A stretch of DNA of 64,000 nt from Eledone cirrhosa (Eukaryota). The notes below the pieces were generated by a model. That model saw only the letters and a list, made by a program, of their open reading frames with translations. It had not been told where the DNA came from and did not search any database. The stretch spans positions 399,714,001 to 399,778,000 of the forward strand of contig OZ024740.1 of the NCBI GenBank assembly GCA_964016885.1, in the 5' to 3' direction. Shown here one piece after another: positions 21,879 to 22,526 of the stretch (positions are counted from its first letter, which is position 1; each line of letters opens with the position of its first letter). Both the position numbers and the translations under genes were made by a program.

Positions 21879-21884
<6 letters not shown>

Positions 21885-22519
21885 TAATAAAAACAATGAA
21901 ATAAAAACGAAGAACAGGTTCCTTATATTGAAAAATTTATCATTTTACGATCGTTTCTGGGATATATGTGTGCTGGTATGTATATCATGATAAAGATCTA
22001 TGTAAAAAAAATTACAAATTATCAGATGAGATATACATACCTTTACATATACATGCCATCTTCAGAAATGATGAAGTATGTTTATTGAAAGAAACTATAA
22101 AAAGTCTGTTTGGAAACAGGTTTTGAATTGACCAATAGAAAAGAGTTAGAGGTCAAACAGACTTTTTATATTTTCTTTCAATAAACATACTTCATCATTT
22201 CTGAAGATGGCATGTATATGTGAAGGTATGTATATCTCCTCTGATAATTTGAAATTTTTTTTACATAGATCTTTAACATGATATACATACCAACACACAT
22301 ATATATCCCAGAAACGATCGTAAAATGATGAATTTTTCAATATAAGGAACCTGTTCTTTGTTTTTATTTCATTGTTTTTATTAATTTATCTTGACTCTGT
22401 TTTCCTATGATTTTTATCGTTGATTTTTGAATGCATTTTTTCTCCATAATATCTTCTATATTTGGATTACATTGAGTTCTTCATACGGTTTGGACACTAC
22501 CGTTTTATTTTGGTAGATT

Positions 22520-22526
<7 letters not shown>
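21879..22526 (+). mobile_element. PLE 3'-end insertion: ~235 bp inverted arms plus 137 bp tail
   Basis: Arms 21879-22112 and 22154-22389; tail 22390-22526; homologous to 43200-43617; TA/AC flanks. Confidence 0.88.
22191..22332 (+). ncRNA. type I hammerhead with 103-nt stem II region
   Basis: TTCATCATTT-CTGAAGA-[103 nt]-GAAAC-GATC-GTA-AAATGATGAA; 10-bp stem I; mirror copy at 21936-22075 (-). Confidence 0.8.

Follow-up and report, generated by a model that had tools for sequence, protein, structure and literature searches.

Two fixed ends and a one-sided tail in Hydra-type Penelope-like elements of Eledone cirrhosa are consistent with twin priming on one RNA

Two diverged insertions in a 64-kb stretch of the Eledone cirrhosa genome (the window), one of 648 bp and the other a 12-kb palindrome, end at a common breakpoint that is followed by a tail on one side only; this breakpoint is programmed and recurs in thousands of copies. 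By their sequence features both insertions are Hydra-type Penelope-like elements (PLEs) in (TA)n. A fixed breakpoint that delimits a tail is already described for PLEs, and what varies here is the length of the tail, the size of the ribozyme and the length of the unit. From the positions of ends and the comparison of arms we put at nearly four chances in five the reading that reverse transcription (RT) starts twice on one RNA, at two fixed sites in nicked (TA)n, and that the two cDNAs are joined head to head.

PMC8557442 and PMC11167929 treat as an open question the route by which PLEs come to form tandem and mirror-image insertions, and how insertions are built bears on PLEs as the closest relatives of telomerase. 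Because the family is young and has thousands of copies, the genome serves as a record of the reaction, and this record points to two fixed starts used once each, a single RNA, a short repeated RNA signal and an RNA 5' end defined to the base. Neither twin priming nor a cap-derived G was found for PLEs in the open-access papers searched, and relative to that literature the end statistics add mechanistic constraints. What an in vitro assay, or sequencing of RNA 5' ends and of circular RNA, should show can be predicted from them exactly.

Layout of the two insertions

The smaller insertion (family B; 21879-22526) and the larger (family A; 31530-43617, 12,088 bp) each have one arm on the minus strand, one on the plus strand and a tail on one side only. 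The inverted arms match until 22389 in family B and until 43483 in family A, leaving tails of 137 nt (22390-22526) and 134 nt (43484-43617). A sequence-only reading of the window had taken the two for diverged relatives, and their right ends are indeed 73% identical over 379 columns. Its further claims, that the arms stop at a common base before CTTGACTCTG and that both tails close with GGTAGATTTATCTAC, hold as well: within the window CTTGACTCTG has just two occurrences, at 22390 and 43484, as has GGTAGATTTATCTAC, at 22512 and 43603. One correction is needed, in that the breakpoint is uncertain by about 3 nt because its final TAT also matches the (TA)n flank; the tail end likewise has ATA or ACA in common with its flank. 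Hammerhead cores lie at 22201 and 43286 (CTGAAGA) and at 22311 and 43408 (GAAAC-GATC-GT(A/T)), and the predicted cuts, after 22322 and 43419, fall 67 and 64 nt upstream of the breakpoint, as had been claimed. We call the breakpoint site 1 and the tail end site 2, and number the RNA from +1 = 43279; on this scale the cut is at +141, site 1 at +205, site 2 at +339 and the ATG at +495, so that both sites lie within the 5' UTR, which recurs at the 3' end of the insertion as the pLTR.

The family B arm without tail (21879-22142, minus strand) has its outer end at site 1 against (TA)n and extends about 50 nt upstream of +1. The pLTR part of the right arm, up to site 1 (22154-22389, plus strand), carries a type I hammerhead motif (22191-22332, plus strand) with stem I TTCATCATTT/AAATGATGAA, core 22201-22207, a stem II of about 100 nt, GAAA at 22311-22314, a palindromic stem III and a predicted cut after 22322 (GUA); the inferred RNA start, 22194, lies inside this motif. 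A second partner strand for the 3' half of stem I (22368-22378, plus strand) is predicted to form a competing hairpin just before site 1. The tail, from site 1 to site 2 on the plus strand, is flanked by (CA)n and contains box 1 (CTC 22395-22397 with GAGTTCT 22474-22480) and an end hairpin, GTAGA-TTTA-TCTAC.

In family A the arm without tail (31530-37488, minus strand) holds a 5'-truncated ORF (35815-37515), a 4-kb microsatellite-rich 3' UTR and a hammerhead, and ends at site 1 against (TA)n. The head-to-head joint (37489-37508) combines an 8-nt inverted microhomology, GATATAGA, with a short templated duplication, its inner ends lying 16 nt apart at RNA 1263 and 1247. On the plus strand there follow a 5'-truncated ORF for RT and a GIY-YIG endonuclease (EN; 37503-39182), which is the C-terminal 559 aa of an 813-aa protein found whole at another locus, L062, and a (TA)n/(TG)n-rich 3' UTR of about 4.1 kb (39183-43278) whose 3' end is a putative promoter region; each arm carries the last 559 codons of the ORF. 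The type I hammerhead motif (43276-43429, plus strand; stem I TTCATTATTT/AAATAATGAA, core 43286-43292, long stem II, GAAA 43408-43411, predicted cut after 43419, GUU) has the putative capped RNA start, 43279, inside stem I, and an exact second copy of TTCATTATTT (43460-43469, plus strand) is a competing partner for the 3' strand of stem I. The tail (plus strand) extends from site 1, after 43483, to site 2, after 43617, against a (TA)n flank, with box 1 (CTC 43489-43491 with GAGTTCT 43565-43571) and an end hairpin.

Identity of the element

Family A is abundant, a 46-mer from it having 6,150 exact matches in the 3.0-Gb genome. At L062 the unit is 7,034 nt long and its 813-aa ORF places RT before a C-terminal GIY-YIG EN, with QFD, MGS, YRDD and VYK...YIG, which we take to be the named RT and EN motifs. 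The same domain layout is found in 118 homologues (E<=1e-10); a Pfam scan and a PDB sequence search with the L062 ORF returned no significant match. The protein has RWR at 37-39 (RWK or RWR in nine homologues, the region being missing in one), DKT at 115-117 in place of DKG, the CxCx5C linker as CNCRNKANC at 673-681, CxxC as CRLC at 771-774 and CxH as CNH at 799-801. A search for the N-terminal G.K[FY] motif found none, and the conserved CCHH is absent, the two Cys between VYK and YIG being neither CxxC nor kept in the homologues. The pLTR tandems typical of PLEs are present, at a spacing of 7.0-7.1 kb and with 300 read-through pLTRs, as are inverted pairs with a single tail. The pLTR carries the type I hammerhead motif with a short palindromic stem III, CGATCG, and stem I has one compensatory change between families A and B. 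Rfam at gathering score gave no match to the hammerhead motifs, a silence that may be due to the long stem II. Nearly all of 84 terminal family A ends adjoin TA runs, and tail ends adjoin (CA)n in some family B copies.

The C-terminal EN+ PLEs of the Hydra clade, which includes Hydra-1_Obim and a Penelope-13_HM with an inverted 5'-truncated copy (PMC8557442), share with the present element RW(R/K), DKT, CxCx5C, CxxC and CxH around the EN end and the lack of a conserved CCHH. Also shared are the type I hammerhead of the pLTR and insertion into (TA)n, in tandem or inverted, with the tail on one side only. Membership in Naiad or Chlamys, with an N-terminal EN and no hammerhead, was considered and ruled out, the EN here being C-terminal and the hammerhead present. 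The differences from published Hydra members are of size. Those are mostly below 3 kb, whereas the present unit has 7.0 kb with a 4.1-kb microsatellite 3' UTR (the ORF by itself has 2.4 kb); their whole hammerhead motifs measure 80-100 nt, flanks included, whereas stem II here has about 100 nt; and the tail, an optional extension at one end in PLEs generally, for which 30-40 bp is a typical rather than a defining length (PMC8557442, PMC3846280), is four times longer here than in the clade. An Asn/Thr/Lys-rich insert of about 90-100 aa lies between the RT thumb and the linker (window 38600-38900; residues ~470-590 of the L062 ORF) and is missing in most homologues; it recalls the N-rich inserts of rotifer Penelope (PMC3846280).

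Outer ends, arms and the two start sites

If the breakpoint were programmed rather than random, as the sequence-only reading had supposed, a genome-wide histogram of ends should have sharp peaks at the breakpoint and at the tail end, and two such peaks appear. In the first 100 listed matches of the 46-mer (contig C1), 88 arms had readable downstream DNA; 43 of these end at the breakpoint (+205 to +208) and 41 at the tail end (+342 to +346), four read through into the 5' UTR and none end elsewhere, which leaves 84 of 88 ends at two positions and bears out the claim. For family B, 30 loci taken from 47 genome matches gave 32 scored arms, with 18 at or a few bases from the breakpoint, 13 at the tail end and one elsewhere. 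The two kinds of end are also paired. Of 35 family A insertions in which both outer ends are visible, 33 have one of each (binomial p 4e-8; a hand tally in which nine long pairs were matched by adjacency and three with an unseen end were excluded), and so do 12/12 family B pairs, the window's own included. When 40 loci were sampled by their tails, a partner was in view at 19, and all 19 partners end at site 1 (+200 to +205). The two exceptions are L081/L082, with both arms at site 1, and L038, whose partner ends near +169. L081/L082 (G000:C1:30693100-30708500), the only clear-cut one, is an 11.4-kb palindrome with a lone tailed arm 2.7 kb rightward; a family B copy (L122:1229-1586) is permuted on one strand, with (TA)n followed by some 80 nt from site 1 on and then by the upstream part, re-ending at site 1.

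From the core to site 1, no more than one change separates the two arms of an insertion in 36 of 40 pairs (three of which involve an internal copy, and one is nested) as against 8.75% of 400 random pairs, and the median number of changes is 0 within insertions and 7 between them. By this comparison the two arms of an insertion share private variants, although conversion between arms or a single source locus, rather than one RNA molecule, could account for their identity. In about 11 insertions (L085, L086, L104, L119, L120, L170, L187, L188, L245, L263 and, in family B, L132) the tailed arm ends at or before site 1, at +202 in L263, and such an arm cannot have templated the other. The inner ends of long palindromes usually lie hundreds to thousands of bases apart, either arm may be the longer, and a loop is missing from many joints (AAATAATTATTT, AAATATTT). 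That the two arms should always end at one inner base was considered and rejected, since it holds only for stubs that end at +1 and for a few long copies.

Two primings on one template would fit both the ends and the arms. The element's enzyme would nick both strands of the (TA)n target, reverse transcription would start once per site on the same RNA, at site 1 and at site 2, and the two antisense copies would be joined head to head through microhomology-mediated end joining. That the sites are RT starts we infer by analogy with PAc, the Poseidon element of Anolis carolinensis, in which both strands are cut and extended and RT starts in vitro from two internal positions, the borders of the tail (PMC11167929). 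About 3 nt of each site match the target. Within the 7,034-nt unit the pattern [AG]CTC...GAG[TC][TG]CT, a regex composed after the end sites had been seen, occurs at two places only, unit positions 8 and 6904; it follows site 1 by 5 nt (box 1, ACTC/GAGT) and the shared ATA of site 2 by 6 nt (box 2, GCTC/GAGC), and the end of a third family in the window precedes the same motif by 5 nt. In the RNA, CUC...GAG(U/C)UCU may fold into a stem that positions the enzyme, in which case the tail length would be the distance between two stems. Pairing is predicted at 0.96 for box 1 of family A, 0.94 for family C, 0.26 for box 1 of family B and 0.44 for box 2 of family A; the alignment of families A and B contains no covariation or compensatory change in the box and tail structure. 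CTTGACTCTG would then owe its conservation to forming the 5' strand of box 1, and the length of the tail would come from the 72-75 nt that box 1 encloses here, as against 12 nt in a neighbouring family.

Twin priming of this kind has partial precedents. As in PAc, ends fall on two fixed sites downstream of the pLTR hammerhead, the target is A+T-rich, and there is no sign of ribozyme-cut RNA as the main template; by contrast, the sites lie in the 5' UTR here (ATG at +495) and 111-118 nt into the ORF in PAc, the tail has 134-137 nt rather than 30-40, and about 3 nt match the target, whereas the PAc start is reported to be non-homologous to the cut DNA (PMC11167929). The one-of-each rule, the cap peak and the repeated box are unreported for PAc in the main-text parts searched (PMC11167929). 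With L1 twin priming the reading shares a second target end that primes a second cDNA, a microhomology joint and an extra G at the RNA 5' end; in L1, however, the position of the second start is random and there is hardly any overlap between the pieces, whereas here the start is fixed, overlap is usually full, and palindromes reach 6 kb per arm (PMC11702581).

Site 1 might instead be a DNA cut, both arms being primed at the tail end and EN later cutting one of them at TTTAT/CTTG during resolution. The tail is considered most likely an EN-mediated resolution product in PMC8557442, the D. virilis EN needs the tail for recognition (cited in PMC11167929), and site 1 is A+T-rich, as is the target. 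We nevertheless regard this course of events as unlikely, given that the RT of PAc starts at both tail borders in vitro (PMC11167929), that the same motif stands behind both sites at the same distance, and that site 1 is intact in the 300 internal read-through copies; the stalling of tailed arms just at site 1 (L263, L132) would also suit a second cDNA that was already there.

Self-priming, in which a cDNA primed at the tail end folds back and its second strand stops at the breakpoint, is how palindromic joints of rotifer Penelope have been read (PMC3846280). It would be possible for the 12-kb copy, in which the joint has an 8-nt inverted microhomology and 16 nt lie between the inner ends, but it does not fit the roughly 11 insertions with non-overlapping arms, the many loop-free joints, some with an extra G on both arms, the long arms that mostly end far apart with either one longer, or the 648-bp copy, whose untailed arm reaches further 5' than the tailed one. 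Fold-back is excluded as the general route, and we give it little chance overall.

The similar distance from predicted cut to breakpoint in families A and B could suggest that the hammerhead cut fixes the breakpoint 64-67 nt downstream. This is very improbable: the third window family ends 38 nt past its predicted cut, yet keeps the 5-nt distance to the box motif that follows; family A variants with indels in the stretch from cut to site 1 still end at the same place; and hammerhead mutants had no effect on PAc insertion size in vitro (PMC11167929). The cut does not appear to set the breakpoint, and a predicted stem just past the breakpoint is a more plausible candidate for the signal.

Long palindromes with perfect arms may arise as artefacts of long reads, and the sequence-only reading had argued from the shared breakpoint that the 12-kb palindrome is biological. 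Its sequence agrees with that: the left arm ends at the family breakpoint in (TA)n, the flanks are not mirrored, the arms, compared over about 5,960 nt, differ at 11 positions and by 5 indels, the centre has the short templated duplication, and other palindromes, 5-11 kb long and obeying the same end rule, are common elsewhere in the genome. With 84 of 88 ends at two positions, and the same ends in contigs of other runs (some possibly the assembly's source), chance or an assembly mirror artefact has hardly any probability left and is refuted for the family.

The RNA start and the template

In short palindromes the two arms join at a single base, the A in TTC/ATTATTTCTGAAGA, which lies inside hammerhead stem I. 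Genome-wide the base before ATTATTTCTGAAGA is C in 3,070 arms and another base in 1,169, so that 1,169 of 4,239 end there; all 30 of the ends inspected are true ends, and read-through copies have only 13 substitutions there, and the count at a control position is 28. The base at -1 is G in 295 of the 1,169 (25%) as against nine of 100 at a +2 control (Fisher p 1.2e-4), the control being the first 100 of 243 rows and excluding A where the +1 count excludes C. Some joints have the extra G on both arms (L032, L045), some G's at -1 could have come from the partner arm (L153, L159/L160), and two of three family B ends at +1 have it (L143, L145). In contigs of other runs, loose ends lie at 43279 in X1 and X6, X6 runs on from 43279 into the inverted arm, and X4 has TA after 43483. 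From these sequences, +1 is likely the start of a capped RNA and the extra G a trace of the cap, in which case the short palindromes would be run-off copies. PLE transcripts start in the upstream pLTR (PMC6765202), and an extra G is a known cap trace in L1 insertions (PMC11702581).

About 65-70 nt upstream of +1, both families have ATTGGTCAATT (43210-43220 and 22130-22140), a candidate promoter element that is presumably a reversed CCAAT-like box; copies that end at +1 would be without it. At another locus (L210; G000:C1:34130889-34133923) four arms with two identical head-to-head +1 joints suggest that a palindromic stub was re-copied.

The internal, gene-linked pLTRs behave differently from these ends. 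Among 30 examined out of the 300 read-through copies, none starts at +1 to +8; 26 run across +1 and four start between +132 and +288. They represent 21 independent arrays, and at a stop rate of 28% the chance of 0/21 is about 0.001 by our own arithmetic. A cap G carried into read-through copies by LTR-like strand transfer was not seen, there being one G among 13 substitutions at -1. The hammerhead cut site has 51 candidate ends and a control position 28; of 20 inspected, 16 are joints and four are substitutions, and five can be explained by a 7-nt match to the partner arm. There is no clear peak at the cut, and ribozyme-cut RNA would be a minor linear template at most. In folding predictions, stem I forms only if upstream bases are present and the competing strand has yet to be made (P 0.81-0.90 vs 0.00-0.10), so an RNA that starts at +1 would be unable to hold stem I, the more so once the second TTCATTATTT has been made.

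The lack of +1 stops in internal copies hints at a second, cap-less and possibly circular template. Tentatively, and with more doubt than confidence, we suggest two templates: a capped linear RNA would give the short palindromes with a cap G, and a template without +1, perhaps a ribozyme-made circle, would give long arms and tandems. The capped RNA, starting inside stem I, would have its 5' ribozyme switched off and would be twin-primed at the two box-marked sites near its 5' end; long arms and tandems would come most simply from a ribozyme-cut, circularised 7-kb unit that carries each start site once and is copied round and round. A multi-unit read-through RNA, or efficient template jumping, are the alternatives for long arms and tandems. 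Type I hammerheads in tandem units are likewise found in non-LTR retrozymes, for which it has been proposed that PLE enzymes copy a circular RNA into tandem cDNA (PMC7229834; bioRxiv 10.64898/2026.07.22.740005); those are non-coding repeats of 170-400 nt with demonstrated circles, whereas here the unit is a coding one of 7 kb and the putative circle follows from copies that do not stop.

The window holds several other elements of interest. The third Hydra-like family (22602-26880) adjoins the small insertion, with minus-strand pLTRs at ~22602-22860 and 25181-25450, a minimal hammerhead whose cores lie at 22667 and 25247, a frameshifted ORF in the stretch between the pLTRs, and its end before CTC...GAGTGCT. 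Upstream of it, RT and EN pieces in inverted order (25441-26315) look like another family. Two fragments, at 2795-3586 (minus strand) and 4485-5358 (plus strand), we take to be endonuclease regions of non-LTR retrotransposons, with a restriction-like C-terminus and AP-endonuclease-like pieces. A palindrome at 48800-51607 has 1,002-nt arms, 100% complementary, around 804 nt, with its right end against (TA)n and a hammerhead-like core nearby at 48332. Short hammerhead-like motifs occur at 15127-15571, 17249 and 29526, and the divergent pair at 15127 (minus strand) and 15547 (plus strand) may be a small palindromic stub.
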